Shown piece after piece: positions 3,309 to 31,239 of a DNA stretch of 53,639 bases. The stretch comes from a virus (lineage: Duplodnaviria > Caudoviricetes): the IMG/VR virus record IMGVR_UViG_3300025723_000054, positions 1-53,639 of that record; one strand, given 5' to 3'. The notes under the pieces are model-generated. The model searched no databases. It worked only from the letters and a program-made list of their open reading frames with translations, and was not told where the DNA came from. A program made the position numbers and the translations under genes. Each line of letters begins with the position of its first letter. Position 1 is the stretch's first letter.

Positions 3309-4031
3309 ATGGATATTATGAATGAATCTAAATTTTATGTTTATGCTTATTTGGACCCAAGAAAAAGTGGTAATTTTATTTATGGGGAATATGTTTTTGA
3401 TTTTGAACCTTTTTATATTGGTAAAGGTTATAAGAATAGATGTAATGAGCATCTACGAGAATCTTCATTGAAAGAATCGTCTTTTAAAAATAATAAAATT
3501 AAAAAAATATTATCGCTAGGTTTAGCACCAATTATATTAAAAATTAGTGTAAATATTTTTGAACATGACGCTTTTGATTTAGAAAAAAAATTAATAAGGA
3601 TAATAGGTCGATATGATTTAGGTTGTGGTCCACTTACAAATCTAACTGATGGTGGTGACGGTATAACAGGATTAATAAAAAGTACAGAACATAGACACAA
3701 TTTAAGTGTTAGTAGTTTAGGTAAAAAAATGTCTAAAGAAGCTAGAAAAAAAATTAGTGATTCTTTGATAGGTAAAGTTGGTCGAAATACTGGAAATAAA
3801 CATACTAACGCAACAAAAAAACAAATATCTGAAACTAAAAAAGGTACTTTAAGTTGGAATGCCACACCAGTAATTCAATTAACAAAGGATGGTGATTTTA
3901 TTAAAGAATGGGTTAGTGCAAGTGCTGCGGCTAAAGAATTAAAGTTAAGTCAAGGTAATATCTGGTCAGTGATTAATGGTAATAGAAATAAATGTGGAGG
4001 TTTTAAATGGAAATTAGCAATGAGTATTTAG
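3309..4031 (+). CDS. GIY-YIG-family homing endonuclease with NUMOD3/NUMOD1-type DNA-binding repeats
   Basis: YVYAYLDP...FYIGKG...R, LTNLTDGGDG, KKISDS/KQISET repeats, C-terminal WVSASAAAKEL...GFKW. Confidence 0.85.
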   Translation: MDIMNESKFYVYAYLDPRKSGNFIYGEYVFDFEPFYIGKGYKNRCNEHLRESSLKESSFKNNKIKKILSLGLAPIILKISVNIFEHDAFDLEKKLIRIIGRYDLGCGPLTNLTDGGDGITGLIKSTEHRHNLSVSSLGKKMSKEARKKISDSLIGKVGRNTGNKHTNATKKQISETKKGTLSWNATPVIQLTKDGDFIKEWVSASAAAKELKLSQGNIWSVINGNRNKCGGFKWKLAMSI

Positions 4032-4320: not shown

Positions 4321-5220
4321 ATGAAACATTGGATTGAAATAGCAAGAGAATTTTTTCCTAATGAATTTGATACATATATTAGAAGTCTTTCTACTGGAGA
4401 CGGTAGAAGGCCAGATTCTGTTTCATTTACCAACATTGAAACTGATGTTAAGCGTAGGGACTTAACTATTAACGCTTTATTCTACGATATTGATAAACAT
4501 CAAATTGTTGATTTGGTTAACGGTGTCTCTGACTTAAAAAAGGGTATTGTAAGAACTGTTGGTCACCCAGTTGATAGATTTAATGAGGATAAGCTAAGAA
4601 TACTTAGAGCAATTAGGTTTGCCGCTAGATTTGGTTCTGATTTGGATGCCGATATTGACGCAGCATTAAAGAGGGATGCCAGTCTTGGTGAAGTTTCTGG
4701 TGAGAGAATTAGGGATGAATTTATCAAGGGGATTAAATCAGCTAAATCTGTAAAGCATTTTCTTGAGTTATTGGATAGATACCAATTGTTCAACTTTATC
4801 TTTAAAGGTTTACATGTAAATAAAGAGTTCTTAGATGATAAGAACGTTATTTTACAATTAGCTGTGTTGTTGAAGGGTAATTCAAGTGCCGCTATTAATA
4901 AGGGGTTAAATAATTTGAAATATCCAGTTAACGAGATAAAGGCTGTTATATTTCTCTTGAATTTATTACACTTAAGCGTTGATAATGCAGTAGCGTTAAA
5001 GCGACAAGAAAAGAATGCGCCAATATCTAGGCATCAAATTATAGCTTTTGCCAACAGGGAGAAGTTAGATAACAAGTTAATCAATGCATTTTTGAACTTT
5101 GAGTTAAGTGTGTCGGGTGAGGAAGTTATGCAGCAATTCAATCTTAAGCCAAGTAAAGAGCTTGGTGATACAATTGATAGATTAGAAAAAGAGAACTTCT
5201 TGAAGTTATTAAATGCGTAA
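4321..5220 (+). CDS. cca: CCA-adding tRNA nucleotidyltransferase, C-terminal piece
   Basis: DGRRP, DVKRRDLTINAL, RFNEDKLRILRAIRFAARF and VSGERIRDE motifs. Confidence 0.9.
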   Translation: MKHWIEIAREFFPNEFDTYIRSLSTGDGRRPDSVSFTNIETDVKRRDLTINALFYDIDKHQIVDLVNGVSDLKKGIVRTVGHPVDRFNEDKLRILRAIRFAARFGSDLDADIDAALKRDASLGEVSGERIRDEFIKGIKSAKSVKHFLELLDRYQLFNFIFKGLHVNKEFLDDKNVILQLAVLLKGNSSAAINKGLNNLKYPVNEIKAVIFLLNLLHLSVDNAVALKRQEKNAPISRHQIIAFANREKLDNKLINAFLNFELSVSGEEVMQQFNLKPSKELGDTIDRLEKENFLKLLNA

Positions 5221-6312: not shown

Positions 6313-7029
6313 ATGAAAGTAATATATGCAATTTTAAATAAAGTAACTAATTATAGGTATATTGGTTCCGCTATAAATTTCTATGATAGAAAAAGAAGAC
6401 ATTTAAGTCAATTAAGAAAAAAAGAACATCATTCAATTTTATTACAACGAGCTTGGGATAAATATGGTGAAGATAATTTTGAATTTATTATTTTAGAAAA
6501 TGTTGAAACTAAAGAATTATTAATACCTAGAGAACAATGGTGGTTAGATAATACGCCTAATGAATATAATATCTGTAAAATAGCTGGTAATTCATTAGGT
6601 GTAAAACGTAGAGCTGAAACTAAAGAAAGAGTTAGACTAGCTAATTTAGGTTTAAAACATCCAGAATGGCGAAACAATATTAAAAGTGAAGCTCAGGGTG
6701 GTGAAAATCATTGGCAATATGGTAAAAAAATGCCAAATCATGTAAAAGATAAAAAATCAAAGTCTATGAAGATATGGTGTGAAAACCATGTTTCACATAG
6801 GAAAGGTGTTAGGAATTCTGATGAGGCTATATTAGAAATGCGAAAAAAGTTAATGATACCAATAATACAGTTAGATTTAGATAATAATTTTATTAAAGAA
6901 TGGGAATCAGCTAAGACTGCATCTAATGAATTAAAAATTTGGGCTAGTAATATAGCCGCTTGTTTGAAAAAAAAGAAAAATAAAGCAGGTAATTTTAAAT
7001 GGGTTTATAAAACTGAATATTATGAATAA
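6313..7029 (+). CDS. GIY-YIG homing endonuclease (Seg-like)
   Basis: VIYAILN...YIGSA...R...H, LQRAWDKYG, EQWW, YNI; NUMOD-type C-terminus. Confidence 0.9.
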   Translation: MKVIYAILNKVTNYRYIGSAINFYDRKRRHLSQLRKKEHHSILLQRAWDKYGEDNFEFIILENVETKELLIPREQWWLDNTPNEYNICKIAGNSLGVKRRAETKERVRLANLGLKHPEWRNNIKSEAQGGENHWQYGKKMPNHVKDKKSKSMKIWCENHVSHRKGVRNSDEAILEMRKKLMIPIIQLDLDNNFIKEWESAKTASNELKIWASNIAACLKKKKNKAGNFKWVYKTEYYE

Positions 7030-7481: not shown

Positions 7482-7934
7482 ATGATAACAGTTAGTTTAG
7501 CGAAAGCTTTGAAGTTAAAGAATAAAGCGGTTGAAGATTATAACACAGCAACAAGCGAAGTTATGTTTAACAACTCTAAGGATGTTGATGAAACAAAAAT
7601 CCTTGATGCTAAAGAAAGGTACGAAGATGTGAAAACATTGATGGGTTCATTGATTGAGTTAAAAACAAAAATTCATGAAGCGTCAGCACCGATAAGGTCT
7701 AAGATATTTGAATTAGGGGAGTTGAAGAATTTGTTGTCTAGGGTAAAAAGCCTTAACACTAAATCTGGTGTTGTTAAAGAAAATCAATATGGTTCTGGCT
7801 TGGTAACAAGAACTTTTGAAGCGGCAATTTCTGAGGCAGATAAAAAAGCTGAGATTACAAGAATTGAAGCGTTAATCGTTAGCATTCAAGATGCTATTGA
7901 CGATTTCAATACAAATACAACGATTGAAATCTAA
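7482..7934 (+). CDS. helical coiled-coil protein resembling the DIP1984 family
   Basis: SLAKALKLK N-terminus and IQDAIDDFNTNTTIEI C-terminus; family recognised from memory only. Confidence 0.55.
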   Translation: MITVSLAKALKLKNKAVEDYNTATSEVMFNNSKDVDETKILDAKERYEDVKTLMGSLIELKTKIHEASAPIRSKIFELGELKNLLSRVKSLNTKSGVVKENQYGSGLVTRTFEAAISEADKKAEITRIEALIVSIQDAIDDFNTNTTIEI

Positions 7935-7941
7935 AAATAAT

Positions 7942-8133
7942 TAACACATCATTACGGATTTTTTGTTATTTTTTGATACCTTATTAGAGAAATCTAATGA
8001 CATATACTGGCGATATTGATATTGTATTCAAAATTCAAGATTCAATCTTATCAATCTTCAATAGTCAAGGTTCAAAATTCCACAACAATTTAAAAACTTT
8101 CAGAACTTACTTAAATGAAGTTTTGGTGTGTTA
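7942..8133 (+). ncRNA. putative structured RNA with about 7-nt TCAA repeats
   Basis: Ends AACACATCA/TGGTGTGTT can pair; TCAA at 8028, 8035, 8042, 8051, 8058, 8065, 8072. Confidence 0.5.
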
Positions 8134-8136
8134 TAT

Positions 8137-8230
8137 ACAGGGGTAGCTCAGTTGAAGAGCGATGGGTTTAGTATAATTAGAACAGTTTACTAAACCCCAT
8201 AGGTCGAGATTTCGTTAATCTCCCCCTGTG
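8137..8230 (+). ncRNA. tRNA-like RNA with elongated anticodon hairpin
   Basis: Acceptor ACAGGGG/CCCCTGT; D arm GCTC/GAGC; T arm GAGAT/ATCTC; anticodon arm extended by TTTAGTA/TACTAAA with a 14-nt loop. Confidence 0.7.
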
Positions 8231-8581
8231 CAAAAAAAAATAAATTTGGTAGATTAAAAATAACTTTGTATATTTGCATTCTATTAAAAAGTTCTTTAAA
8301 ATATTTTACTTATTAGGTTCCTATTTAATCGAGAAATAGGTTTGGATAGTATCATGACGGAGCAAGGGGTAAGTACGAATAAATTTTTAAATTTGAAAAA
8401 GCTTAGGTCCAATCGGCTATAGCGGTATGTGAGGGAAGTGAGATTGGAAAATCCTCCACATTTAAATTGATAGTGAAATATATATCAGCCTCTATATCAA
8501 ATTTATTTTTTTTAAGACTTTACACTTTTTAAAAAAGTGATATATTTATAATTAACGGGGAAACCCATAAACAAAAAGATA

Positions 8582-8659
8582 ATGATACAAGTAAACAACA
8601 TATTTGATTTTAACATTGAAGCAGCTGAGGCCGATTTTGGTACCCAGAGGTTAAGGTAA
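8582..8659 (+). CDS. putative attenuator leader peptide MIQVNNIFDFNIEAAEADFGTQRLR
   Basis: 25 codons after an A-rich initiation region, downstream of ATATTTATA (8542) and immediately upstream of a terminator. Confidence 0.75.
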   Translation: MIQVNNIFDFNIEAAEADFGTQRLR

Positions 8660-8687
8660 TGTCGTTACTTGTAAGAGAGATTAAACG

Positions 8688-8719
8688 AAGCCCTTAACCC
8701 AAAAAGTTAAGGGTTTTTT
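8688..8719 (+). terminator. intrinsic terminator (attenuator) upstream of the tRNA array
   Basis: AAGCCCTTAAC-CCAAAAA-GTTAAGGGTTT followed by a T run; its 5' arm CCTTAACC is also complementary to GGTTAAGG at 8649-8656. Confidence 0.85.
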
Positions 8720-8726
8720 ATTTCAC

Positions 8727-8800
8727 GGATGGTCAGCATATTGGTGTATGACGCTCCCCTGTCACGGGAGAGATTGCGGATTCGAATTCCGTACCATCCG
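8727..8800 (+). tRNA. tRNA-Asp(GUC)
   Basis: GGATGGT/ACCATCC acceptor; CTCCC-CTGTCAC-GGGAG; T loop TTCGAAT; discriminator G; no encoded CCA. Confidence 0.85.
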
Positions 8801-8802
8801 CA

Positions 8803-8887
8803 CGGAAAAGATTCCTAGGGATAGGAACTATCTTGACAAAGATAAGTACTGCACGAATCATTATAAGTTCGAATCTTAATTTTCCGC
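8803..8887 (+). ncRNA. atypical tRNA-like RNA (GAC in a 6-nt loop)
   Basis: CGGAAAA/TTTTCCG; TTCC/GGAA D arm; TATCT-TGACAA-AGATA; AAG-TTCGAAT-CTT. Confidence 0.55.
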
Positions 8888-8923
8888 AGTAGAGAATCAC
8901 AACTCTAAAAAAAATGTGAAACT

Positions 8924-8997
8924 GGTCTATGGATGTGGCATGGTGTGGCTACTGGATTGTCAATCCAGGGAGACGGGTTCGATTCCCGTATAGACCG
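8924..8997 (+). tRNA. tRNA-Asp(GUC)
   Basis: GGTCTAT/ATAGACC; CTGGA-TTGTCAA-TCCAG; ACGGG-TTCGATT-CCCGT; discriminator G. Confidence 0.85.
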
Positions 8998-9152
8998 CAA
9001 AAAAAGTACTGTTGTACGTGAAACGGTAATTTCACCACAATAAGACTTTTCTGATATTATCAAGTTTACCGATAAGATAATAACAGTTTTGTTCCCTTTG
9101 TCCCGTAGCTAAGGACGGTTCCTCACTGGAACCCATTAAAGGGAACGCTAAC

Positions 9153-9225
9153 GGGTAGTGTAGCTCACATGGTAGAGCGAGGGGAGAAAGCCCCTGCGTA
9201 GGTGGTTCGATTCCACCCCTACCCA
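9153..9225 (+). ncRNA. tRNA-like RNA with 6-nt anticodon loop AGAAAG
   Basis: GCTC/GAGC D arm; AGGGG-AGAAAG-CCCCT; GGTGG-TTCGATT-CCACC; bulged acceptor stem. Confidence 0.7.
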
Positions 9226-9273
9226 CAAATTAGAACAACCAGAGCATGACTTGGATGGTGTCTAATTAAAAAC

Positions 9274-9368
9274 GGCGAGAAAACTCCCATACTGGAATTT
9301 GGGAATTATCTTGATAAAGATAGGTACGGCAGATAAAAACATTATAAGTTCGAATCTTATTCTCGCCA
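9274..9368 (+). ncRNA. atypical tRNA-like RNA (GAT in a 6-nt loop), paralog of 8803-8887
   Basis: GGCGAGA/TCTCGCC; TATCT-TGATAA-AGATA; ATAAG-TTCGAAT-CTTAT; long unpaired variable region. Confidence 0.6.
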
Positions 9369-9409
9369 CGAAATGGGTTGAAGATATACATTGAGTGGAA
9401 TCTTCACAT

Positions 9410-9482
9410 GGGGGTAAAGCTCTAGTGGATGAGCACGTGCTTTGCAAGCATGAGGTTGTGGATTCGAGTTCCACTACCTCCA
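9410..9482 (+). tRNA. tRNA-Ala(UGC)
   Basis: GGGGGTA/TACCTCC with G3:U70; CGTGC-TTTGCAA-GCATG; discriminator A. Confidence 0.9.
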
Positions 9483-9594
9483 CAGGATTAAAATCTGTCC
9501 GAATGGTAGTAGGACATAAGTGAGAAGGGAGTGCGAGTCTCCATCTATACCAGTTCGAGTCTGGCATGGGCAGAAAAGCAAAAAATTATGATTT

Positions 9595-9671
9595 GGGGGT
9601 TGGGACTGCATAGGAGTGGTCACTGCACTTGCAATGCAGAAATCAGAGCGAATCGTTCTCGCTAACCTCCA
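9595..9671 (+). tRNA. tRNA-Ala(UGC), divergent T loop
   Basis: GGGGGTT/AACCTCC with G3:U70; CTGCA-CTTGCAA-TGCAG; AGCGA-ATCGTTC-TCGCT. Confidence 0.8.
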
Positions 9672-9739
9672 CAGGTGTGGTTTAAGATGTTTGTCCACCG
9701 AGGCTGTTCTATTTAATCATAGAATAACAAACATCATAT

Positions 9740-9812
9740 GGTACTCAAGCTAACTTGGTAGAAGCATCAGACTGAAAATCTGGGGGACTCGGCTCGGAAC
9801 CGAGGAGTACCA
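9740..9812 (+). tRNA. tRNA-Phe(GAA)
   Basis: GGTACTC/GAGTACC; TCAGA-CTGAAAA-TCTGG; CTCGG-CTCGGAA-CCGAG. Confidence 0.85.
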
Positions 9813-9828
9813 CAAAAATGGAAATGAC

Positions 9829-10029
9829 ATGGAGTTAGAAGACTTACCAATTAGTGAATTGGAAAGAATTGTGGGTGAAGCAACAGCGAGGGCTGCTGAT
9901 GAAGCTATGAAAATCATGGGCTATAATGTTATTGCGTTGAATGGTTGGGTTGTTAAATTATTTCCTGATGGAAGTATTGAAAAGATTAAGGAAATACCTA
10001 AGTCTAACACACCACTAAAATTAGATTAA
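9829..10029 (+). CDS. hypothetical protein
   Basis: 66 aa ORF between tRNA genes. Confidence 0.6.
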   Translation: MELEDLPISELERIVGEATARAADEAMKIMGYNVIALNGWVVKLFPDGSIEKIKEIPKSNTPLKLD

Positions 10030-10091
10030 AAGTTCTTTGAAAAAGATTTGTTAGATTGAAATAAAAGATGTATATTTGCAATATAATAAAC

Positions 10092-10351
10092 GGGTAAAAA
10101 ATAGCATACAGCACACAAGCGAATTTTGGTTTAAGACACTGTTAAGGTGCGCTACCAATTAGGATGTTATTTCTGAAGACGTTTTAAGTTTGTCTCTTTG
10201 TGACGGAACACATTAACTGAATAGAAATCAGGGGAAAATTCTTAAGGCCCTAGTAAGATAGTTCTAATTGTCGGTCATCAGGAAAAATTAAGAAGGATTT
10301 AAAGATATTCCGACTTTAAATAGGCCCTTAAATGTTATTTGTTAGTTACCC
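10092..10351 (+). ncRNA. putative structured ncRNA, about 260 nt
   Basis: Lies between two TATATTTG promoters; termini pair (GGGTAA/TTACCC and AAATAGCAT/ATGTTATTT); no ORF in the track. Confidence 0.5.
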
Positions 10352-10480
10352 AAAAAGGTTGTATATTTGCAAAGAAATTCAGATAGAACAACGCCGAGGA
10401 AATAAGCCTTTGGTATCTGAGTAACGAATTTCAAATTAGGTAATTGAGTTTGAGATGGAGTAGTTAGAAAGATTGTTTAT

Positions 10481-10553
10481 GGGACTGTAGCTCAGTTGGT
10501 AGAGCATTAGATTGAAGCTCTAGGTGTCGTGGGTTCGAACCCCTCTGGTCCCA
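10481..10553 (+). tRNA. tRNA-Phe(GAA)
   Basis: GGGACTG/TGGTCCC; canonical D arm; TTAGA-TTGAAGC-TCTAG. Confidence 0.9.
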
Positions 10554-10614
10554 CAAGATGCTCTGACCGTTCAGAGAATTGAGTAGATGAAACATAGGTC
10601 GTCTAGTCACAAAT

Positions 10615-10707
10615 GGCGAGATAGCTCAGAATGTTAGGTGCTAAGTACTAGCATGAGGTAGAGTAGTCCGAAAGGATTGGACGGTGGTTCGAATCCATCT
10701 TTTGCCA
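10615..10707 (+). ncRNA. anticodon-less tRNA-like RNA
   Basis: GGCGAGA/TTTTGCC; hairpin inserted in the D loop; anticodon arm is GTCC-GAAA-GGAT; GGTGG-TTCGAAT-CCATC. Confidence 0.75.
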
Positions 10708-10777
10708 CAAATTTTTTAATAGTTCTTTGAATCAATACTTTTTTTAGGGTTCGACATATTTATATATAAATCATTAT

Positions 10778-11560
10778 ATGAATTTATGTAAAAAATGTGG
10801 AAATAGGTTTGAACCAATTAAAGGTTTAATAAATTATTGTTCTTTAGAGTGTAGAAATAGTAGAACTTGGAGTGAAAGCGATAAATTAAAAAAATCTGTA
10901 GTAGCTAAAAATTCTGAAAAAGTAAAAATTGCTAATAAAATTAACGCTAAAAATAACGTTGGTAAATTTAGAGTTGATAGGGTTATAAATATTTGCCCTG
11001 TTTGTAATAACGAAATCTCAAGTCTTTCAACAGTTAATACCAAATATCATAAAGAATGTTATAAAACAGTATCTGGCGGCTATCGTAAGAATAGTGGTCG
11101 TGGTAAATGTGGTTGGTATAAAGGTTATTGGTGTCAAAGCTCTTATGAGTTAGCGTTTGTTATTTATAATTTAGAAAACAATATAAGTTTTGAACGTAAT
11201 AATGATACTTTTGAATATATTTTTGATGGTAAAATTCATTTATATTTACCAGATTTTAAAATAGGTGATAAATATGTTGAAATAAAGGGTTATTATAATG
11301 AACAAGTTTTTGAGAAGATTTCAGTTTTAAAGGATAATTTAATATTGCTTGATAAGTCAAATATGACACATATTTTTTCTTATGTTGTTGATAAATACGG
11401 TAAAGATTTTATTAAACTATTTGAGGGTAATCCACATAATCAATTAACTACAACTTGTAGGGAATGTGGTAAACCTTGTAAAAGAAAAAATCTTTATTGT
11501 AGTAGAGTTTGTTCTGGAAAAGGTGTTAGTAAATTAAATAAAAATGCTATGGTCGACTAG
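10778..11560 (+). CDS. PD-(D/E)XK endonuclease with Zn-finger motifs, probable homing endonuclease
   Basis: SSYE...YLPDF...VEIKG; several CxxC and YCSxxC motifs; own ATATTTATA motif; stop codon lies inside tRNA-Glu. Confidence 0.8.
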   Translation: MNLCKKCGNRFEPIKGLINYCSLECRNSRTWSESDKLKKSVVAKNSEKVKIANKINAKNNVGKFRVDRVINICPVCNNEISSLSTVNTKYHKECYKTVSGGYRKNSGRGKCGWYKGYWCQSSYELAFVIYNLENNISFERNNDTFEYIFDGKIHLYLPDFKIGDKYVEIKGYYNEQVFEKISVLKDNLILLDKSNMTHIFSYVVDKYGKDFIKLFEGNPHNQLTTTCRECGKPCKRKNLYCSRVCSGKGVSKLNKNAMVD

Positions 11561-11631
11561 TGGCTCAGGTCGCATCCCTTTCAAGGATGTGGGGAGAAAT
11601 CCCCTCACGGGTTCGAATCCCGTCCATAGTA
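11546..11631 (+). tRNA. tRNA-Glu(UUC) with long variable arm
   Basis: GCTATGG/CCATAGT; CATCC-CTTTCAA-GGATG; variable arm GGGGA-GAAA-TCCCC. Confidence 0.85.
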
Positions 11632-11669
11632 CAAAAGTTCTTTTATTTATTAAAATAAATTAGTTAATT

Positions 11670-11873
11670 ATGGGAATGTTTTCTGAAATATCAAATGGTG
11701 GAAATGCTAAATTAATCGGTGAAAAGATATTATTAGCTGTTGAAGAAAATCCTGAAACAAAAGAGTTTGTAAGAAAGTATTTTTTACCAATTTATAACGA
11801 TTTTGTTGTTGATGCATATGGTTGTGAGAATAAAGAGGTTGATAAAAAAATCTTTGAGCTATTTGGCCCATAA
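11670..11873 (+). CDS. hypothetical protein
   Basis: 67 aa ORF whose end overlaps the next tRNA. Confidence 0.55.
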   Translation: MGMFSEISNGGNAKLIGEKILLAVEENPETKEFVRKYFLPIYNDFVVDAYGCENKEVDKKIFELFGP

Positions 11874-11947
11874 TACAATTGGGTGAGTGACCGTCCTTTC
11901 AAGTCGGGGCCGTAAGGTCAGAGTGGGTTCGATTCCCATGTGGGCTA
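11865..11947 (+). tRNA. tRNA-Glu(UUC) with long variable arm
   Basis: GGCCCAT/GTGGGCT; CCGTC-CTTTCAA-GTCGG (one mismatch); variable arm GGCC-GTAA-GGTC. Confidence 0.8.
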
Positions 11948-12139
11948 GGCTATCAAGTTAACTTACCGCTATGAGGTGATAGCTAGAAACAGGTAATGCT
12001 GGCTAAATTGTTAACGAGTTGTAAAGAGACTCTTAAACTGGAAAGATACCATAAGAGACGGTGGTAAATGCTTTACGACAAAGAATTGGTTCATTAATGA
12101 AATGGTTTTTGATGTGATATATTAATCAAAAAGAAAACT

Positions 12140-12472
12140 ATGGAAAAGATGAATGAATTTTTAGAATCATTGAGGGTAACACCAATATATGAGGGTTTCT
12201 CTGACAGAGAAGATGTGTTTGCACAGTTTGCAAAAACTGAAGACACAGACATACAAATCGTATATGCAAACTATGTTTGTGAATGTTATGAAGGAAGCGC
12301 AAGCGTAATTTATTACAGAGAATCAACAGGTAAGTATTATGAAGTGTATGGTGGACATTGTTCATGTTATGGGTTGGAAGACCAATGGAATGGCGATGAA
12401 GAAATAGTGGTTGCAGAACTGCTAAATCGTGTGGTTGAGCTAAATGCTCTCTACAAAAATTGGGCCCAGTAA
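12140..12472 (+). CDS. hypothetical phage protein
   Basis: 110 aa; YEGSA...GGHCSCYGLE motif. Confidence 0.75.
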   Translation: MEKMNEFLESLRVTPIYEGFSDREDVFAQFAKTEDTDIQIVYANYVCECYEGSASVIYYRESTGKYYEVYGGHCSCYGLEDQWNGDEEIVVAELLNRVVELNALYKNWAQ

Positions 12473-12532
12473 AGCCTCTTGCGCAAGCAATGTAACTGGT
12501 GGAGATAACCTTCGGGTGACGCTCTCCAAATC

Positions 12533-12606
12533 GGGTGGTTAGCTCAGTTGGTTAGAGCGCATGGGTATCCCCCTAGAGGTCGTTGGTTCGAGTCCAGCAC
12601 TGCCCA
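12533..12606 (+). tRNA. atypical tRNA, apparent anticodon AUC (Asp)
   Basis: Canonical D and T arms; GGGTGGT/ACTGCCC; anticodon arm CATGG-GTATCCC-CCTAG has two mismatches. Confidence 0.55.
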
Positions 12607-12792
12607 CAATGACAAAGAGATGGTCAGGAAGTAACGGTCTCCCTCGCTTTAATGAGGTTGATATGTGGGGAAATGCTGACAAATCCGTCTCGCATCCACA
12701 TTATAGGATTGACAGTTTGCGGTAAGACGCTTTGGTTTTTGAAATAGGAAAAAACCTAATTATCTACTTACAATAATCTCATGTAAGGAAAT

Positions 12793-12879
12793 GGTGCGGT
12801 AGCTCAGTTGGTAGAGCAATGAGGACCAGCAATGGTCATGAAAACTCATGTGTCGGTGATTCGATTCCACCCTGCACCA
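12793..12879 (+). ncRNA. tRNA-Phe-like RNA with a GNRA hairpin inserted in the anticodon loop
   Basis: ATGAG-[GACCA-GCAA-TGGTC]-ATGAAAA-CTCAT; acceptor GGTGCGG/CTGCACC. Confidence 0.75.
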
Positions 12880-13009
12880 CGATTGTTAAAACGCTGGCTT
12901 CGTTTTGAAATGATAGATAACATGCCACTGTGTAAAAACGAACAGAAACACTATCAAGAAGGAAAGTCTGCAACTAAACCTGCTTAGCTTTTGGAATGTA
13001 AAGGCAAAT

Positions 13010-13141
13010 GTGTATGTAGCATAAAATGAATGCACTAACGAAAGTTAGGTTGTTTTTAGATTACCTCAGGTTAGACTCCTGAGTTAAAGAGGTTAATGGT
13101 AATCTATTGAAAACTAGAAGGTTCATCCCCTTCCATACACA
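13010..13141 (+). ncRNA. anticodon-less tRNA-like RNA with very large variable arm
   Basis: GTGTATG/CATACAC; GCAT/ATGC; CTAAC-GAAA-GTTAG; TAGATTACC/GGTAATCTA helix; GAAGG/CCTTC T arm. Confidence 0.7.
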
Positions 13142-13393
13142 CTATATAATGAAAAAAATGGATATTGAATTGTTTAAGAAAAATTATACACCATTGATGA
13201 TGTCATTGGTTAACACACTAGCTAAAAAGCTTGAGTATGAAATTAAGCATGATATATCTACTGGAAATCATCATATTATCATGAAAGCAAAGTATAAAAT
13301 TGAGACTTTAGCTGAATGTAAAATGTTGTTAGAGGTTTACGAAGGTTGCCCAATTTGTTTTAAATTGGATTGTCAAAGTGACCATAAATAAAT

Positions 13394-13467
13394 GGAATAT
13401 TAGTAGAGTTGGTTACAATATCCCCCTGTCACGGGGAAGGTCACGGGTTCGAATCCCGTATATTCCG
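13394..13467 (+). tRNA. tRNA-Asp(GUC)
   Basis: GGAATAT/ATATTCC; TCCCC-CTGTCAC-GGGGA; ACGGG-TTCGAAT-CCCGT; discriminator G. Confidence 0.9.
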
Positions 13468-13603
13468 CTGGTTAGTTCTTTTTTGGTTACTGTAGGAACA
13501 AATAGGGAAGCACCCCGATAAAGACCCGTTCAGCGGTCCTTTTGATTTCATGAGTATTTAGGTCCTTCAGTGGCTACAAGAAAGGTGCAAGCTGACCAAA
13601 TTT

Positions 13604-13673
13604 GGAGATTTGGTGTAATTTGATAGCATGGCCCACTGTCTGGGTTGGCGAGGTTTAAGTCCTTAGTTCTCCG
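13604..13673 (+). ncRNA. degenerate tRNA-like RNA (Asp-like)
   Basis: GGAGA/TCTCC ends with discriminator G; GGCCC-ACTGTCT-GGGTT; GAGG-TTTAAGT-CCTT. Confidence 0.5.
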
Positions 13674-13677
13674 CAAA

Positions 13678-13787
13678 TGTTCTGATAGAATACTGGTTGT
13701 ATTCGCAATATGTAAGAGCCCATATACCAATTGCTGCTTTATGGGACAGAAAAGTTGAGGGGAAAGTTCGATTCTTTCGAAGGACAC
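13678..13787 (+). ncRNA. tRNA-like RNA with hairpin in an expanded anticodon loop
   Basis: TGTTCT/AGGACA; GAAT/ATTC D arm; CAAT...CCCATA/TATGGG...GTTG; GAAAG-TTCGATT-CTTTC. Confidence 0.55.
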
Positions 13788-14277
13788 GTTAATAACAAAA
13801 AAAAAATAATGAAAACAGTTAATATAGTTTTATTATATACGAGAAATAATTATGCTGATAATTTTATAGACGATGATGGTAAAATCAGTCATTGTAGTTG
13901 GAAATATTCTAATTATAGGTTTGTAAAACAAACAACTAAAGGAGTAGATTTGCATGTGGTTCAAAAACCAACTGATGATTTCAAATTGGATGATATGGCA
14001 TTTAATCCATTTTTAAAACCATATCTGTGGCGTAAAAGACGTATTGGTGAAAAAAATAAGGTTGATTTACATCCTTATACGGTGAAAATAATTAAAAATA
14101 ATCTTAATTATTTAGAAATAGAATTCATAATGGACTATTTAAATAGTCTTGATAAAATACCATTTGGTAAGGTAATAACAATAAATATAAAAAATTGAGC
14201 GCAATGAAACAGCTGGACGCATTTGGCTCACAGAGCAATATATAAAGTTCTGTGAGGATAAAAAAATCGAATTTAAG

Positions 14278-15057
14278 ATGGAAGAAAGTATCAAATCCTA
14301 TGATGATACAACCCTATTCTGCCCATCAGGTATGCAACAATTTAAGTCCTTATTCAAGGATGTAAATTACAGGGGAACACAGTCGAATATTCAACCATGT
14401 CTACGGTTGAACGACATTGAAGAAATTGGTGATGGAACGCATCTACTATATTTCAACATGATTGGGTTATTCTCATTCCGAGAATTAACTCTTACTTACA
14501 CAATTGATTTTTGGTTTGAATTTTTAGGTACTATTGGTATTATACCAGATTATGTTACTATTCATCCAGATAAGTTGGACTGGAAGGAACTTTATGTTAA
14601 GCATAACGTTGAGGTTAGGCTTGATGAAGGATGCCTTTGGACTGATGGCGATATAGGTGGTTATTGTACTGAGTTCTATAAGAATGATATTGAGATTGGT
14701 AATATTGTCAATACTCTAGGAACATGCATTGACGTTGGTTTTGGTCTTGAGAGATTAGAATTGATACTTACTGGTAATAAGCCATCTAAAGAAAGTACAT
14801 TAAGGGAGAGTATAATGAAAATTATTGATAGTGGGGTATTGCCGAGTCATAATAAACAAGGTCATATTTTAAAGAAACTATTACGTCTTTGTTATAGAGA
14901 AGGTATTGAGATTGACCATCAATTATATCGTGATGAAGTCATAAGAAATGACAAGATAAAACTTAAATGGGAACGTTTAAAAGAAAAATTTAAACACATG
15001 CCTGATGAATGGTTTTGGAACACACATGGAATTGATGTAACGTTATTTAAAAAATAA
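14278..15057 (+). CDS. alaS: minimal alanyl-tRNA synthetase (aminoacylation domain only)
   Basis: DTTLF..SGMQQFK, QPCLR..DIEEIG..H..FNMIG.FSF, EIGNIV and IDVGFGLERL motifs; no editing or C-Ala domain; reading frame is open upstream to about 14191. Confidence 0.85.
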   Translation: MEESIKSYDDTTLFCPSGMQQFKSLFKDVNYRGTQSNIQPCLRLNDIEEIGDGTHLLYFNMIGLFSFRELTLTYTIDFWFEFLGTIGIIPDYVTIHPDKLDWKELYVKHNVEVRLDEGCLWTDGDIGGYCTEFYKNDIEIGNIVNTLGTCIDVGFGLERLELILTGNKPSKESTLRESIMKIIDSGVLPSHNKQGHILKKLLRLCYREGIEIDHQLYRDEVIRNDKIKLKWERLKEKFKHMPDEWFWNTHGIDVTLFKK

Positions 15058-17618: not shown

Positions 17619-19482
17619 TTTAATCTTCAATGTTTAAATATATATTTTTATTTGGTTTAATACTTTTTTGTTTCTATCTTGTAATTGTTGGTACCAGTAG
17701 TGCTAAAGATAAAGAAATAAAAATGATATGTATTAAGTCACATATTGTTACTGATAGTCAATACTCGGAACGGTACCATAATTGGAATATATATAAAACA
17801 ACAATTTGTGATTCATGTATTTATGACACAGTTAAATTTGACATACCATATGAGTAAAATAATTGAGGTTGGTGATATTGTTAAACCAACAAAAGAAAGT
17901 GGTTACACATTAAGGTGTGGTAGTGGTATGTATGGTGCTGCGGTAGTTATATCTGTAGCTCCGTTTATATTGGTTTCAGAAGAAACAGATATGCGTTGGT
18001 CAGCTACCGTTCAAATTGGTGATTTTGAAATTGTTGGAAAGACTACGAAAAAACATTTGAAAAAATGTATGCGTAGAATAAACGATTAAATATGAGCAAA
18101 GTACAAGAATATCTCGAAAAAAAACGTGTTGAAGCTTTAGGATTACCTAAGTTATGGCTTGTTAAATCACACTATAAAACTGGTGTTAACGAACCAAAAG
18201 AAGTACAGACTAAAGAAATCTATAAATCTGGTACTAGAAGTTATAATGACGGACCTTATATTGATGTCTATAAGTATAGACTAGATGGTTATCCATACGA
18301 AATTGATATTGAAGATGGTGCGAAGAGTGGAATAGACCATGGATATGGTACTGGCTTTGGTGACTTATGGTGTTGGACAAATGCATGTTTCTTTACAAAA
18401 GAAGATGCTGATGCGTTTTACATAAAAGAAAATAAACGTCTTGAAGAAAAGCCAATTAAGAATGCTATTGAAATTATGCTAAATGCTAAGCCTTATCAAG
18501 AAATTCTTGAGAAATTTGCTAGAGAAAAGTATAATGAGAAATTTAAGGACACGCCAACACCTTATAACTCATTTCATCATTACACAAGCTATGACGTTAT
18601 TGACAACAATACAATTAACGTTAATTATGTTTACGGTGCTGGTGATATGGAATTTAATGATTCATTTAAAATAAACTTAGATTAACTATGGAGATTACAT
18701 ACGAAAACATGCATAAGGGTCTTGAACATGCTGAGGTTAGGGATTTTATATCTTCTCAACTCTGTGAGGTCCAAGAAAAGATTAATAAAAATCGGCCAAA
18801 AAGGATTGAACTAGTTAATGGCGATTATATGCGTTATCGTATTGAAACACTTGAAAATGAAATTAAGGTTAAACAATATGAGCTTCAGTTAGTCAATAAT
18901 TTGAATGCATTAATTACAATCATGAAATCTTTTAATTGGAAAGATTATGACGTTTCTGACCACATCAAGTGTAAAACTGAAGTTGGTTATAGAAACTTTA
19001 TTGGAACCATTGAGGAACACGAAAATCTATTAATTTTTTAATAATGACAATACCTATTAATATTTGGGACGATTTCTATGATGATGGATATGTCCCACAA
19101 GGTAAAACCCAAAATACATACATTTATGTTGAGGAACCAGATATACCCTTAGAAAAACAAGAAGCGATACTACAAATTTTACTGGAACACTTAAAGACCA
19201 ATGTTAGGTTAGAAGGGGTTACACTTAACCTATTTTTTAATGATACATCTTTAAAATATCCTCAATTCATCGGTACTGAAAATGAGTGGATGCTTTTTAA
19301 GCGTTGGGAAATAAGAGTAGATAATTTAACGCATAAGCGTTTAGATAGCCTTGTAGGTGAGTTAAATAACGCTCATTTAGATTATGAAGGTGTGCCGTTT
19401 AGAATTTATTCCGAATCATAAAAAATAATTTTGCCAGTATCAAAAAAGGTTGTATATTTGCATCACAATAAAAATAAATTAT

Positions 19483-21147
19483 ATGAACATTAAGGATTAC
19501 AAAAAGAAAATTCACAAAGTACCTAGAATTTTAATTCCAGATGCTTACACAATTGGTTCAAACGATTTTGAATCTGAAAAAGCTAAAGAAAAATCAGTCT
19601 ATTACATTACAGCTAGGCGATTGCTCGACAAAATCAATCCTGTTCTCTACAACGAAAATGACACTCGTTATTTACTTTCACATTTTGGCCGTATTATCGA
19701 ATATATCTTCCTTGAGCCTGTTACAATGGAAGAAATTGAAGAAGCTGACAGATATTTGGAACTTGCAAAAGTTACAACTCATGGGTTAGCTAAATTCTAT
19801 TATCCAAGGGAACTTTGGGTTAGAATAGTTAATGAGTTTGGTGGTCGTATTCCAATTGAAATTAAGGCTCTTCCAGAAGGTAGTGTTTTCTACCCACACG
19901 AACCAGTTATTGAAATAAAGAATTTGGTTAAGGGCTTTGGTGTGTTTGCTGCAATGTTTGAAAGTAAGTTATTGCACATTTGGGCATCAACCGAAATGAC
20001 AACTCAATTAGAACACTGGGTTCTATACTACAAGGAATTACTTGATAACGTATATGGTGATTCTAAATCTGATGATGAGAAAGATTTCATTGCTCGTTTA
20101 ATGGTTCATAATTTTGGTGATAGGGCTGGTATCTGCCCACAAGAATCTGATTGGTTAGGTGAAACTGCTTTGCTTTCATTTGCTGGTACTGATACATTCT
20201 CTGGTGGTTATTGCGCTTGGAAAAATAGTAATGAACAAGCTGGTGTTGCTTTATCAGTTTCTGCTTTAGCGCATAGGAACGTTGAATCATACGAAACTGA
20301 GTTTGATTGCTTCAGAGCTTTGTATAACTATCTGAAAGATGGTGAAATTGGTTCATTTGTTGCTGATTGTAATGACTTCTTTAAAGCTGTATATACAGTT
20401 ACGGTTAACCCTAACGGTAGAGTGGACCCAAATTGTCTTTTAGGTCTTGCAATTGAATCAAGGACAACTGGTAATGGTAAGGTTGTTGTTGTTCGTCCTG
20501 ATAGTGGCGTTGCTGTTGACCAAGTACTTTGGTTATGTAATTTAGCAAAGAATCATGGTTTATATCGTGAAATTGTTATTGGCGATAAAACATGGTATGG
20601 TGCAACATTCCTTAAATTCATCGAAGGTGATGGTATGAAGTGGGAAACAATGAAGGAAATTAACGCTGCTTTGTTGGCTGAAGGTTTCTTACCATGGGAA
20701 TGGGGTCTTTATGGTGTTGGTGGTGGACTTCGTAACGATATTAAGCGTGACAATGGTTCATTTAAATATGCTCTTTGTGCTGTTGGTGATGAAGATTCAC
20801 CAAGAGTTAAATTCTCTGAAACTGCTGGTAAGTCTACGCTTGGTGGCCCATTCAAATTGCTTCGTGACCCAGATTCTTTAGCTAATGGTGTAACAATCGT
20901 ATTTGCACATGAGGCTGGTGTTGATGCTAGAGTTGTTTATTACGATGGTACCAAGGGTGATGAATGCTTTGGCGACATTATGGCTGAGGATAACAACGAT
21001 ATTAAATATCGTATCAAAGACCAATTGTCTTGTATGCCAAGTAGATTGATTAACGATGTACCTGCCAGCGAAGCTGTTATTAATACTCGTTTAGAGATAT
21101 TGGCTAAAAATGCTCCTGAGAAGTTAGAATTCTTCAACGCAAAATAA
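19483..21147 (+). CDS. nicotinamide phosphoribosyltransferase-like protein (NAMPT or NARP1 Namat-like)
   Basis: DAY, LPEGS, HNFGDR, SALAH, VRPDSG, EGDG and GVGGGL motifs; start moved to ATG 19483. Confidence 0.85.
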   Translation: MNIKDYKKKIHKVPRILIPDAYTIGSNDFESEKAKEKSVYYITARRLLDKINPVLYNENDTRYLLSHFGRIIEYIFLEPVTMEEIEEADRYLELAKVTTHGLAKFYYPRELWVRIVNEFGGRIPIEIKALPEGSVFYPHEPVIEIKNLVKGFGVFAAMFESKLLHIWASTEMTTQLEHWVLYYKELLDNVYGDSKSDDEKDFIARLMVHNFGDRAGICPQESDWLGETALLSFAGTDTFSGGYCAWKNSNEQAGVALSVSALAHRNVESYETEFDCFRALYNYLKDGEIGSFVADCNDFFKAVYTVTVNPNGRVDPNCLLGLAIESRTTGNGKVVVVRPDSGVAVDQVLWLCNLAKNHGLYREIVIGDKTWYGATFLKFIEGDGMKWETMKEINAALLAEGFLPWEWGLYGVGGGLRNDIKRDNGSFKYALCAVGDEDSPRVKFSETAGKSTLGGPFKLLRDPDSLANGVTIVFAHEAGVDARVVYYDGTKGDECFGDIMAEDNNDIKYRIKDQLSCMPSRLINDVPASEAVINTRLEILAKNAPEKLEFFNAK

Positions 21148-21514: not shown

Positions 21515-22498
21515 ATGGTAAAGATAGCTAGTTGTTCTTCAACAAAGTATTTGTTAGATAAGTTCGTTAATCCTGAACTTGTTGGTTATAAAGTAGAACT
21601 TGAGACTAAGAAATTCTCAGATGGTGAAATGGCCGTTCAATATTTAGAATCAATCCGTGGTCGTGACCTATTTCTTCTGGCCGACACTTCGCAAAATTTA
21701 ACTGAGCTATTATTAGCCCTTGATGGTGCTATCAGAAGTTCCGCTAAATCAATAACTGTTATATTACCATACTATGGTTATGGTCGTCAAGACAAAAAAG
21801 ATGGGCATAGAGGTTCATTAGGTGCCTCAGTTATGGCACATGCTTTACAATCATTTGGTGTTAACCGTGTTGTTTCAATTGACCTTCACGCCGACCAAAT
21901 TCAAGGGATGTTTCATATTCCATTAGAACATATTAAAGGTCACAGCGTATTCATTGATTTTGTTCAAAACAATATTGACCTAAGTAATGTAATATTGTGT
22001 TCACCAGATGCTGGTGGTGTTCATAGGGTTCAAAAATACGGTACCAAGTTGAACTTACCAATGGTCTCTATTAATAAGAGAAGAGATAAACCAAACTCAA
22101 TAGCTTCAATGGAGCTTATTGGTTCGGTTAAGGGTAAGAATGTTATGATTATTGACGATATGGTTGATACTTGTGGTACTCTTAAAAAAGCTGTTAGTTA
22201 CTTGAAAGCTGAAGGTGCATTAAAGGTTTACTACATTGCTACGCACCCAGTATTAAGCGGTGAAGCATTTACAAACTTAGTATCATCAGAATTAGATGAA
22301 TTAATTATTAGCGATACGGTTCTTGTTGATGATATTGAGGGTAGTTTAGATTATGCTAAAATATTTCTTCAATACGAAAGTGATGATTTTGTATCTAATA
22401 ATTTAAAAGTTCATCAAGTATCTTGTGTTCCAGTATTGGAAAAGGTTATTATCAACTTGATAAATGATGAATCAATTTCTGAATTAAATAATCTATAA
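21515..22498 (+). CDS. prs: ribose-phosphate pyrophosphokinase-like protein (PRS or NARP1 Adps-like)
   Basis: FSDGE, PYYGYGRQDK, DLHADQIQG, SPDAGG, KRR and IIDDMVDTCGT motifs. Confidence 0.9.
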   Translation: MVKIASCSSTKYLLDKFVNPELVGYKVELETKKFSDGEMAVQYLESIRGRDLFLLADTSQNLTELLLALDGAIRSSAKSITVILPYYGYGRQDKKDGHRGSLGASVMAHALQSFGVNRVVSIDLHADQIQGMFHIPLEHIKGHSVFIDFVQNNIDLSNVILCSPDAGGVHRVQKYGTKLNLPMVSINKRRDKPNSIASMELIGSVKGKNVMIIDDMVDTCGTLKKAVSYLKAEGALKVYYIATHPVLSGEAFTNLVSSELDELIISDTVLVDDIEGSLDYAKIFLQYESDDFVSNNLKVHQVSCVPVLEKVIINLINDESISELNNL

Positions 22499-24356: not shown

Positions 24357-25073
24357 ATGAATAAAAAGAAAAAGGTAATCGGACTTTCGTTCTCTGGTGG
24401 TCTTGATTCAACATACTTACTATGGAAAAATCTTGAATTAGGTAACATAGTTATGTGTATTTACACAAATATTAAAAATAATGAAGTTAAAACATTAGCG
24501 GAAAAAAAGTCCGTTAAAGCAATCATTAAAAAATTTCAAGAGAAATATGGTTATAATCAAGTTCAATTAATAGAAAATTCAATTGAAATTGGTGGACATT
24601 CATGTGTAATTTTTAACCAAGTTCCAATACATTTATTCTCAATACAATATTCGAACATAAATATTGAGGAATTTCAGATTGGCTATTGTATGAATGACGA
24701 TGCAATTTCGTATATGAATGAAATTAAAAAAGCTTGGGCTAGTTATAAACCATTTTTTGATAACAAACAACCAAAGTTAACATTCCCGTTAAGTAAAGTA
24801 CATAAGAAAATCATGCTTAATGAGTTACCACATGATGTAGCTGAATTAGTTTTTTCATGTGAAATGCCTAGGCAGGTAGATACAAATGATTTTCAAATAT
24901 GTGGGCATTGTGACCCATGTAAAAAGTATTCAAACATGGGTGGTTATTATGATTTAGCTAATCTTTTTTATAAAAGAGGTAACACTAAATCATTATTGTC
25001 CTTGAAATCCTCTGATGAGGAACTAGATGGTGAATTAGAATTTTCAGAAGATAAAAATAAAGTAAATGGATAG
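24357..25073 (+). CDS. QueC-like PP-loop ATPase
   Basis: SFSGGLDS; C-terminal SC...CGHCDPC Zn site. Confidence 0.75.
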   Translation: MNKKKKVIGLSFSGGLDSTYLLWKNLELGNIVMCIYTNIKNNEVKTLAEKKSVKAIIKKFQEKYGYNQVQLIENSIEIGGHSCVIFNQVPIHLFSIQYSNINIEEFQIGYCMNDDAISYMNEIKKAWASYKPFFDNKQPKLTFPLSKVHKKIMLNELPHDVAELVFSCEMPRQVDTNDFQICGHCDPCKKYSNMGGYYDLANLFYKRGNTKSLLSLKSSDEELDGELEFSEDKNKVNG

Positions 25074-31155: not shown

Positions 31156-31239
31156 GGGGAATTAGCTCAGTTGGTAGAGCACTTGGCCAAGGCGAAAGCC
31201 GCAACCGAATGGTCGGAGGTTCGAACCCTTCATTCCCCA
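31156..31239 (+). ncRNA. tRNA-like RNA with a GNRA hairpin in the anticodon loop
   Basis: GGGGAAT/ATTCCCC; canonical D and T arms; TTGG-CCAA-[GGC-GAAA-GCC]-GCAA-CCGA. Confidence 0.75.

Follow-up and report, generated by a model that had tools for sequence, protein, structure and literature searches.

For more than 50 years it has been asked why phages carry tRNA genes (PMC10264068), and the locus described here raises a related question: what decides when such genes are transcribed? The DNA analysed (the window) is the whole of virus record IMGVR_UViG_3300025723_000054, 53,639 bases long, and its close relatives are pieces of genomes of about 350 kb (one of them, G002, is 45% complete with 160 kb). 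A member of the Bacteroidota is the probable host, because TATATTTGC, which fits what we take to be the promoter consensus of that group, TAnnTTTG, occurs 19 times in the window, always on the + strand, against 1.5 copies expected. An initial annotation of this DNA had read a short ORF and a terminator ahead of a tRNA cluster as an attenuator. Here, we report that the leader element is real, conserved and widespread, and we conclude with high confidence that the unit is a ribosome-mediated transcription attenuator with tRNA as its output.

Leader and tRNA cluster in the window

The sequence layout claimed in the initial annotation is found as described (Table 1). Its motif at 8542 is read directly as ATATTTATA at 8542-8550. 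The putative element TATATTTATA is by itself not enriched in the window (2 found, 1.5 expected); ATATTTAT lies within 80 nt upstream in 9 of the 45 leader families listed, compared with 2% of random positions, and a host-type TATATTTGC stands farther upstream of the leader, at 8269. Three related loci (L001, L026 and L129) likewise have a 5' hairpin like GGGGAAACCC ahead of the leader. The coordinates and peptide of the 25-codon ORF are confirmed, as are two exact complementarities, that of GGTTAAGG with CCTTAACC (8692-8699), proposed as an antiterminator, and that of TACAAGTAA (8586-8594) with 8665-8673, proposed as a third helix. This exact 8-nt complement of CCTTAACC arises in 39 of 20,000 dinucleotide shuffles of 8582-8687. 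The strong terminator, placed at 8688-8719, is a hairpin with a U tract at 8687-8721; the first tRNA, Asp (GTC), does begin at 8727, and the 13 nt between hairpin and tRNA hold no TAnnTTTG.

Table 1 Positions of leader, tRNA and promoter-motif features in the window
Feature	Position	Strand	Basis
Putative promoter element TATATTTATA of the leader transcript	8541..8550	+	sequence
Small 5' hairpin GGGGAAACCC ahead of the start codon	8557..8566	+	folding
Leader ORF, 25 codons, class A (F/D/E/A)	8582..8659	+	ORF reading, 31 distinct homologous units listed
Candidate sensor codons 8-19, Phe/Asp/Glu/Ala 10/12	8603..8638	+	codon count
Predicted protector helix, strand 1, pairs with 8659-8673	8586..8601	+	folding, swapped-pairing test
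Predicted protector helix, 3' strand	8659..8673	+	folding
Predicted antiterminator, strand 2 GGTTAAGG	8649..8656	+	complementarity, compensatory changes in homologs
Intrinsic terminator, hairpin 8691-8713 (5' arm = strand 3) and U tract	8691..8721	+	hairpin search
tRNA-Asp(GTC), 13 nt past hairpin	8727..8801	+	ARAGORN, Rfam
tRNA-Asp(GTC), weak in Rfam	8924..8998	+	ARAGORN
tRNA, anticodon ambiguous	9153..9226	+	ARAGORN, Rfam
tRNA-Ala(TGC)	9410..9483	+	ARAGORN, Rfam
Atypical tRNA-Ala(TGC)	9595..9672	+	ARAGORN relaxed threshold only
tRNA-Phe(GAA)	9740..9813	+	ARAGORN, Rfam
Internal host-type promoter motif TATATTTGC	10071..10079	+	motif search
Second internal TATATTTGC motif	10362-10370	+	motif search
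tRNA-Phe(GAA)	10481..10554	+	ARAGORN, Rfam
Internal ATATTTAT motif	10756		motif search
tRNA-Glu(TTC), long variable arm	11546..11632	+	ARAGORN, Rfam
tRNA-Glu(TTC), long variable arm	11864..11948	+	ARAGORN
tRNA-Asp(ATC)	12533..12607	+	ARAGORN, Rfam
tRNA-Ala(AGC)	12793..12880	+	ARAGORN, Rfam
tRNA-Asp(GTC), last tRNA of the cluster	13394..13468	+	ARAGORN, Rfam

The earlier count of ten Phe, Asp, Glu or Ala codons among codons 8-19 is right. These residues make up 24% of the window's long ORFs (binomial 2.5e-5), and 6 of 11,750 twelve-residue windows reach 10/12. The core had nevertheless been picked post hoc, since all 24 codons after the start give just 10/24 (p 0.04), and the window taken alone is suggestive. 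Codons 2-7, 11 and 12 are non-cognate, which counts against the attenuator reading.

tRNA genes were called with ARAGORN, at default and relaxed thresholds, and with Rfam. The default setting gives 12 in the window: three Asp(GTC), one Ala(TGC), two Phe, two Glu, Asp(ATC), Ala(AGC), an anticodon-ambiguous gene at 9153 and Leu(AAG). The cluster at 8727-13468 comprises three Asp(GTC), Asp(ATC), two Ala(TGC) (one atypical), Ala(AGC), two Phe and two Glu, together with poorly classified tRNA-like genes; one of the Ala(TGC) genes (9595) and two tRNA-like genes (8137 and 10615) are called solely at the relaxed threshold or in Rfam. The Asp/Ala/Phe/Glu cluster of the initial annotation is thus present, but its number of nine was loose. 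Of the extra genes, Asp(ATC) and Ala(AGC) match leader codons, and the lone Leu(AAG), at 31156, lies outside the cluster and is ungated.

The region has further features of its own. The long variable arm on both Glu(TTC) tRNAs is unusual for Glu, and a wobble-position A is found in Asp(ATC) (12533), Ala(AGC) (12793) and Leu(AAG) (31156); in the relative G002, Phe(AAA) replaces Asp(ATC) at the same place (L019 16083), both being leader-cognate. Genes that resemble tRNAs and have abnormal anticodon arms or additional arms lie at 8137-8230, 9153-9226, 10615-10708, about 8803-8888 and about 9283-9369; two of these abnormal genes have a TCTTGAYAAAGATA segment in common, and the element at 8137 is present in duplicate in L019. 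Long structured non-coding stretches, at 10080-10470 and in L116, L119, L131 and L138, stand behind host-type promoters and before ungated tRNAs, with no Rfam match in the window. Directly after the cluster, 14278-15057 encodes a 259-aa stand-alone alanyl-tRNA synthetase catalytic fragment (Pfam tRNA-synt_2c), whose homolog (70%) in LR745206.1 sits within an Ile/Gly/Ala gated cluster. Homing endonuclease genes are found around and within the tRNA region (3309-4031, 6313-7029 and 10778-11560), and genes for NAD salvage (NadR-like, NAPRTase and PRPP synthetase) and a QueC-like gene at 368-1372, 19450-21147, 21515-22498 and 24357-25073. A CCA-adding enzyme is encoded at 4321-5220.

Conservation of the leader and its match to downstream tRNAs

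The leader is too short for a protein-based locus search, so viral contigs were scanned with DNA patterns, which gave at least 31 distinct units of the window's class (class A). All 31 listed have a hairpin and U tract at the place of the window's terminator and Asp, Phe or Ala as the first tRNA behind it, and their clusters are mostly Asp/Phe/Glu/Ala with occasional other calls at the relaxed threshold. The ORF is conserved, a point on which the earlier reading hinged: insertions and deletions inside the core involve whole codons, those of a single base lie solely behind the core and alter the tail, and ORF length ranges from 25 to 30 codons as the tail varies. Among 19 distinct indel-free cores, differences number 237, 266 and 585 at codon positions 1, 2 and 3, and 215 of the 379 amino-acid changes remain within Phe/Asp/Glu/Ala. 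This pattern of indels and substitutions indicates conservation of frame and codon identity in the core and not of the peptide end. The start context is A-rich and SD-less, like that of phage genes, with A at -3 in 76% of leaders compared with 58% of long ORFs and 32% of antisense ATGs.

The first homolog found (L001) carries a second unit, in which a Leu/Val/Cys-rich leader precedes Cys, Val and Leu tRNAs. Mapping of tRNAs in related genomes and reading of each cluster gave four leader classes: A (Asp/Ala/Phe/Glu), B (Cys/Val/Leu), C (Trp/Ser/His/Ile/Met/Asn/Arg) and D (Pro/Gln/Tyr/Thr/Gly/Lys). The four gated clusters jointly cover 20 of 20 amino acids in G004, G005, G006 and G009 (G004 and G009 being near-identical) and 18 in G008. 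In a count over seven genomes, codons 8-19 are cognate to the cluster behind their own leader in 270 of 312 cases and to the other clusters in 35 of 864. The four clusters of the complete genome G005 hold 37 assigned tRNAs, with 45 Rfam matches genome-wide. Tiling of the code is not universal, as the complete genome G003 has C and D units only in the four tRNA regions examined, and ungated tRNAs occur in every panel genome too. Between the class C terminator and its first tRNA lies a conserved ORF of 56-60 aa (L026 462-632, L115 577), and homologs of the CCA-adding enzyme are encoded a few kb from class C leaders in many loci (L037, L040, L048 and others).

Several searches and candidates yielded less. 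Two of the 18 stretches from the first class A pattern were real units, 3 of 38 class A pattern matches lay inside long ORFs and were excluded, and the 44 stretches from a class B pattern were mostly chance matches. The upstream 150-aa protein, used as a query, led to one close relative and to five distant loci that lack the leader, no cultured phage with the leader emerged from BLAST of GenBank phages, and one strict pattern found no tRNA-adjacent terminators in Atu_ph07 and CcrBL9, a result that does not establish their absence. L408 and L434 were rejected as gated-tRNA loci, having no tRNA. RNA runs were rejected as expression evidence: X3 has no leader coverage, and X1 and X2 are probably a relative's DNA, about 90% alike.

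The codon match also holds in a survey whose pattern (a 6-mer that leaders have in common close to their start, plus a U tract and a tRNA T-loop) does not require cognate codons. It gave at least 118 stretches in viral contigs and is silent on prevalence among tRNA-bearing phages, because the 6-mer was taken from known leaders. From these, 114 loci with 116 matches were analysed: 100 matches have a hairpin terminator and a short ORF bearing the 6-mer, 6 an ORF lacking the motif and 10 no unit. Among the matches listed, a start-distance filter gave 98 units, 74 peptides and 46 families, and the member with most tRNA types was tested from each family. In the 46 families listed, 0.639 of the 12 post-motif codons are cognate to the downstream tRNAs versus 0.248 under permutation (sd 0.025, maximum 0.353 in 10,000), and 0.956 of tRNA types are represented in their own leader versus 0.501 permuted; the ORF tail has no cognate excess (0.260 versus 0.240). 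Since these families share ancestry, their independence is overstated by the permutation p-values. Low-scoring families are mostly loci truncated after one tRNA. Hence, leader codons follow downstream tRNAs across the 46 listed families as well as within genomes, which is the covariation that the initial annotation had predicted. Many differing partitions occur (Tyr/Lys, His/Phe/Lys/Trp, Arg/Ser, Glu/Tyr, Ile/Gly/Ala and Gln-only), and units are present in GenBank records of 635, 636 and 735 kb (LR745206.1, LR756504.1 and LR756501.1). Exact codon-anticodon matching was rejected as a rule: in the viral families listed, exact matches fall below expectation (124 versus 151.5) and wobble-readable ones above it (290 versus 268). 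This preference might reflect slow wobble decoding that raises sensitivity, or mere base composition.

The same pattern gave at least 120 matches in GTDB contigs. Among the 120 listed, 17 are units with a motif-bearing ORF, 2 more are units without the motif and the rest are not units. The listed bacterial units are mostly from Bacteroidota or Balneolota, and some lie on phage contigs inside MAGs (L351, probably L292); L351, from a Methanobacterium MAG, bears units of classes A and B and is apparently a phage contig binned there by mistake. For the 11 distinct tRNA sets among the matches listed, the cognate fraction is 0.44 versus 0.19 (0/10,000), and the match is weak in single-tRNA units because just 1-3 core codons are cognate. 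The isolate Parachryseolinea silvisoli (L347) has a unit gating tRNA-Pro(TGG) and tRNA-Arg(GCG) among ordinary genes, and no such leader, bar one spurious call, at 27 other tRNAs (29 of 46 Rfam tRNA matches covered). The presence of the unit in a cultured bacterium opens it to study without phage isolation. In L361 a leader and tRNA-Tyr head genes for TPR, SPFH and RtcB proteins, with a divergent WYL gene (Pfam), and L364, L336 and L334, all from Bacteroidota MAGs, resemble this operon by protein N-termini. Units were further seen in contigs labelled Alphaproteobacteria (L337 1-1060, a tandem pair of units in a 3.3-Mb chromosome), Acidobacteriota (L373) and Syntrophus (L311), and on account of these the system may reach beyond Bacteroidota.

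Pairing in the leader RNA and modelled ribosome positions

The terminator 5' arm pairs better with its own leader than swapped arms do (-12.6 versus -8.0 kcal/mol, p 3e-11, 46 families listed), and the antiterminator reaches a shuffle p<0.05 in 32 of the 46 families listed. The pairing stretch lies after the sensing codons, and its end is a median of 15 nt ahead of the last base of the stop codon. Within class A the difference persists (own -9.2, swapped -7.8, p 0.003), and GGTTAAG:CTTAACC of the window is GGTCGAG:CTCGACC in L001 and L285, a case of two compensatory changes. With the register fixed by a motif rule, A-U/G-C and C-G/U-A swaps are seen in the antiterminator, and there are 100 Watson-Crick cells versus 87.9 shuffled (0/10,000). 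Tests on the class A alignment are weaker, in part owing to a register shift of the window row: RNAalifold finds no consensus pairs there, the pair count is modest (73.7% versus 70.7%, 14/500) and the covariation score stands at 35/500. The third helix ties the ORF start to the RNA just past the stop codon and encloses strand 2. Its pairing is -9.8 kcal/mol for own and -6.7 for swapped strands in the 46 families listed and not significant within class A (p 0.066); from folding, it reads as a protector or pause helix. The anatomy of the leader, its conservation, the covariation of its codons with the tRNAs and the covariation of antiterminator and terminator are observations, and they support the attenuation reading of the initial annotation.

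Each modelled ribosome covered 15 nt upstream of the A site and 10 or 12 nt downstream of it. On nascent RNA without the terminator 3' arm, antiterminator formation is about 1 up to codon 18/19 and about 0 by codon 21-22. With the whole hairpin present and folding allowed only 3' of the ribosome, it is 0.6-0.9 at codons 13-19 and 0 from codon 20, and stalls at codons 1-9 of the window favour the terminator; this codon 19/20 switch, which applies to the +10 nt footprint and moves one codon earlier with +12, coincides with the end of the F/D/E/A run. When folding is also allowed 5' of the ribosome, the terminator wins at equilibrium at all ribosome positions, and it is likewise the equilibrium fold of the free leader RNA. 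The footprint-masked folding suggested earlier therefore gives a switch in the nascent and 3'-only models and none in whole-RNA equilibrium; we think the 3'-only model is the more physical one. Among the 46 families listed, 42 switch between core and stop codon on nascent RNA; with the whole hairpin present, 21 switch and 14 hold the antiterminator above 0.5. In these models the switch must be partly kinetic, because the terminator wins at equilibrium and only 14 of 46 families keep the antiterminator against the whole hairpin. Cognate codons make up 298 of 397 positions before the modelled switch point and 90 of 266 after it (32 families listed).

In the nascent-RNA model any stall before codon 20 frees strand 2, and general inhibitors would probably trigger the switch as well. 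The leader could then be a general sensor of translation stress, whether from antibiotics, ribosome damage or uncoupling, in which codon identity is irrelevant; toiL, which such a sensor would resemble, answers several antibiotic classes (PMC12121999). We consider this hardly probable, as it explains neither the match of leaders to their own clusters (270/312 versus 35/864) nor the need for four differing leaders per genome.

A different account would take the terminator as a plain boundary or processing hairpin, with the tRNAs made from internal promoters and the leader either vestigial or coding for a small peptide. The initial annotation had itself raised internal promoters as a caveat, and the caveat is real: the motifs at 10071, 10362 and 10756 may allow distal tRNAs to be expressed separately, past the switch, and a promoter-like motif lies inside 17 of 28 class A clusters. 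The terminator as equilibrium fold of the free RNA would suit a boundary hairpin, too. Against it stand the 11 of 28 clusters without an internal motif, the 13-nt spacer free of TAnnTTTG, a peptide tail that tolerates frameshifts and a length range of 25-30 codons, and the compensatory changes in the window's antiterminator relative to its homologs. Taken together, these make a plain boundary very unlikely.

Proposed mechanism and relation to known systems

What we infer from this architecture is that the ORF is translated, that ribosomes stall on it and readthrough follows, which way the switch works and what its signal is. RNA polymerase would transcribe the leader with a ribosome behind it. 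If Asp, Ala, Phe and Glu codons are decoded fast, the ribosome would move beyond codon 20 and cover GGTTAAGG, the terminator would fold and transcription would end 13 nt short of tRNA-Asp. Shortage of even one of those tRNAs would make the ribosome stall in codons 8-19, leaving GGTTAAGG to pair with the terminator 5' arm, and the antiterminator so formed would let the Asp/Ala/Phe/Glu tRNA genes be transcribed. The new tRNAs would read the leader, relieve the stall and close a feedback loop, and the 5' protector helix probably holds an untranslated leader off. Related phages carry several such leaders as a panel, and each would report on its own subset of amino acids.

The likeliest signal would be loss of or damage to tRNA, by host tRNases or by decay of host tRNA during infection. 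Alternatively, the same attenuator could respond to amino-acid starvation as in trp, his and pheST, raising tRNA supply in a starved host. Uncharged tRNA stalls a ribosome just as missing tRNA does, so from sequence alone the two are mechanically the same, and they are not mutually exclusive signals. Grouping of leaders by amino acid rather than by exact anticodon would fit starvation, as would the truncated alanyl-tRNA synthetase after the cluster at 14278. We nevertheless regard starvation as an unlikely signal: more tRNA would presumably not provide a missing amino acid, groupings vary freely between lineages (46 families listed) and not along biosynthetic families, and one bacterial unit heads an RNA-repair operon. 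Tipping the balance to tRNA loss are the expectation that extra tRNA would cure it and not starvation, the link to RtcB, the CCA-adding enzyme at 4321 and the use of phage tRNAs against anticodon nucleases (PMC10264068).

We think it reasonably probable that giant phages with Bacteroidota-type promoters, and some bacteria, operate a modular surveillance panel of the tRNA pool, made up of a few attenuators, in which the attenuator of each class activates only its own replacement tRNAs; the leader codons would split the whole code, and some bacteria would also switch an RNA-repair operon. If true, one could read from the leaders which tRNAs are lost jointly when hosts and phages are in conflict, and any defence that targets tRNA could be monitored in vivo with a programmable reporter built on them. 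Each tRNA set would be conditional on slow decoding of its own codons, and because the switch is conditional, phage tRNAs would be an on-demand repair of a depleted pool rather than a standing fix for codon bias. The tRNA would feed back on its own synthesis, and the leaders would be natural multiplexed sensors of tRNA loss.

In E. coli, trpL, hisL, pheL, pheM/pheST, thrL and ilvL are ribosome-mediated attenuators of amino-acid operons. The phage leader would work like these classical attenuators and lies outside every amino-acid leader family: Rfam gives no amino-acid leader family at E<=1 in window 7900-14300 and no leader family at gathering score in six related loci. The T-box riboswitch senses the charging of a specific tRNA via its specifier loop and has no ORF. 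Both systems link sensing to tRNA through a choice between terminator and antiterminator, but the T-box itself binds tRNA directly whereas the leader has an ORF, and Rfam finds no T-box in window 7900-14300. E. coli toiL and stress-sensing uORFs share the remodelling of leader RNA by a stalled ribosome; as described in PMC12121999, toiL differs in using translation attenuation with Rho, sensing antibiotics generally and having a toxin-antitoxin output.

For tRNA genes, the closest parallel is the Anabaena trn operon and other long tRNA arrays, whose silent accessory tRNAs are induced by impaired translation and which share rtcB co-regulation and homing endonucleases in the array (PMC8421152 and PMC10272220). 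Control there is by promoter direct repeats and a repressor (TrcR), acting on one block and not codon-specific. Work on counter-defence supplies a likely purpose for the gated tRNAs, as phage tRNAs counter anticodon nucleases by replacing host tRNAs destroyed by defence (PMC10264068, PMC11555353 and PMC12409363); it concerns resistance of tRNAs to cleavage and not control of their expression, and PMC10264068 lacks promoter or attenuation terms. The terms attenuat-, leader and terminator are absent from the main text of PMC8421152, and attenuat- from the main texts of PMC7162821, PMC7824862 and PMC10264068. The full-text literature search found no attenuator for phage or bacterial tRNA genes, in agreement with the initial annotation as far as open full text goes; supplementary catalogues of RNA motifs or small ORFs could list such leaders.

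The comparison closest in mechanism remains that with the attenuators of amino-acid operons, among them pheL (PMC3082878). Common to both are a short leader ORF with sensing codons, a protector (putative in the phage leader), an antiterminator and an intrinsic terminator, and a stall that would lead to readthrough, with multivalent sensing as in thr and ilv. Unlike those attenuators, the phage-encoded leaders gate tRNA genes instead of biosynthetic enzymes or synthetases, so that the product reads the sensor; one leader would report on up to about 10 amino acids, and a panel of them tiles the genetic code. No earlier description seems to exist of a tRNA output, of such a feedback loop or of a panel that tiles the code; with them, attenuation would reach beyond enzyme operons and include tRNA genes and viruses.
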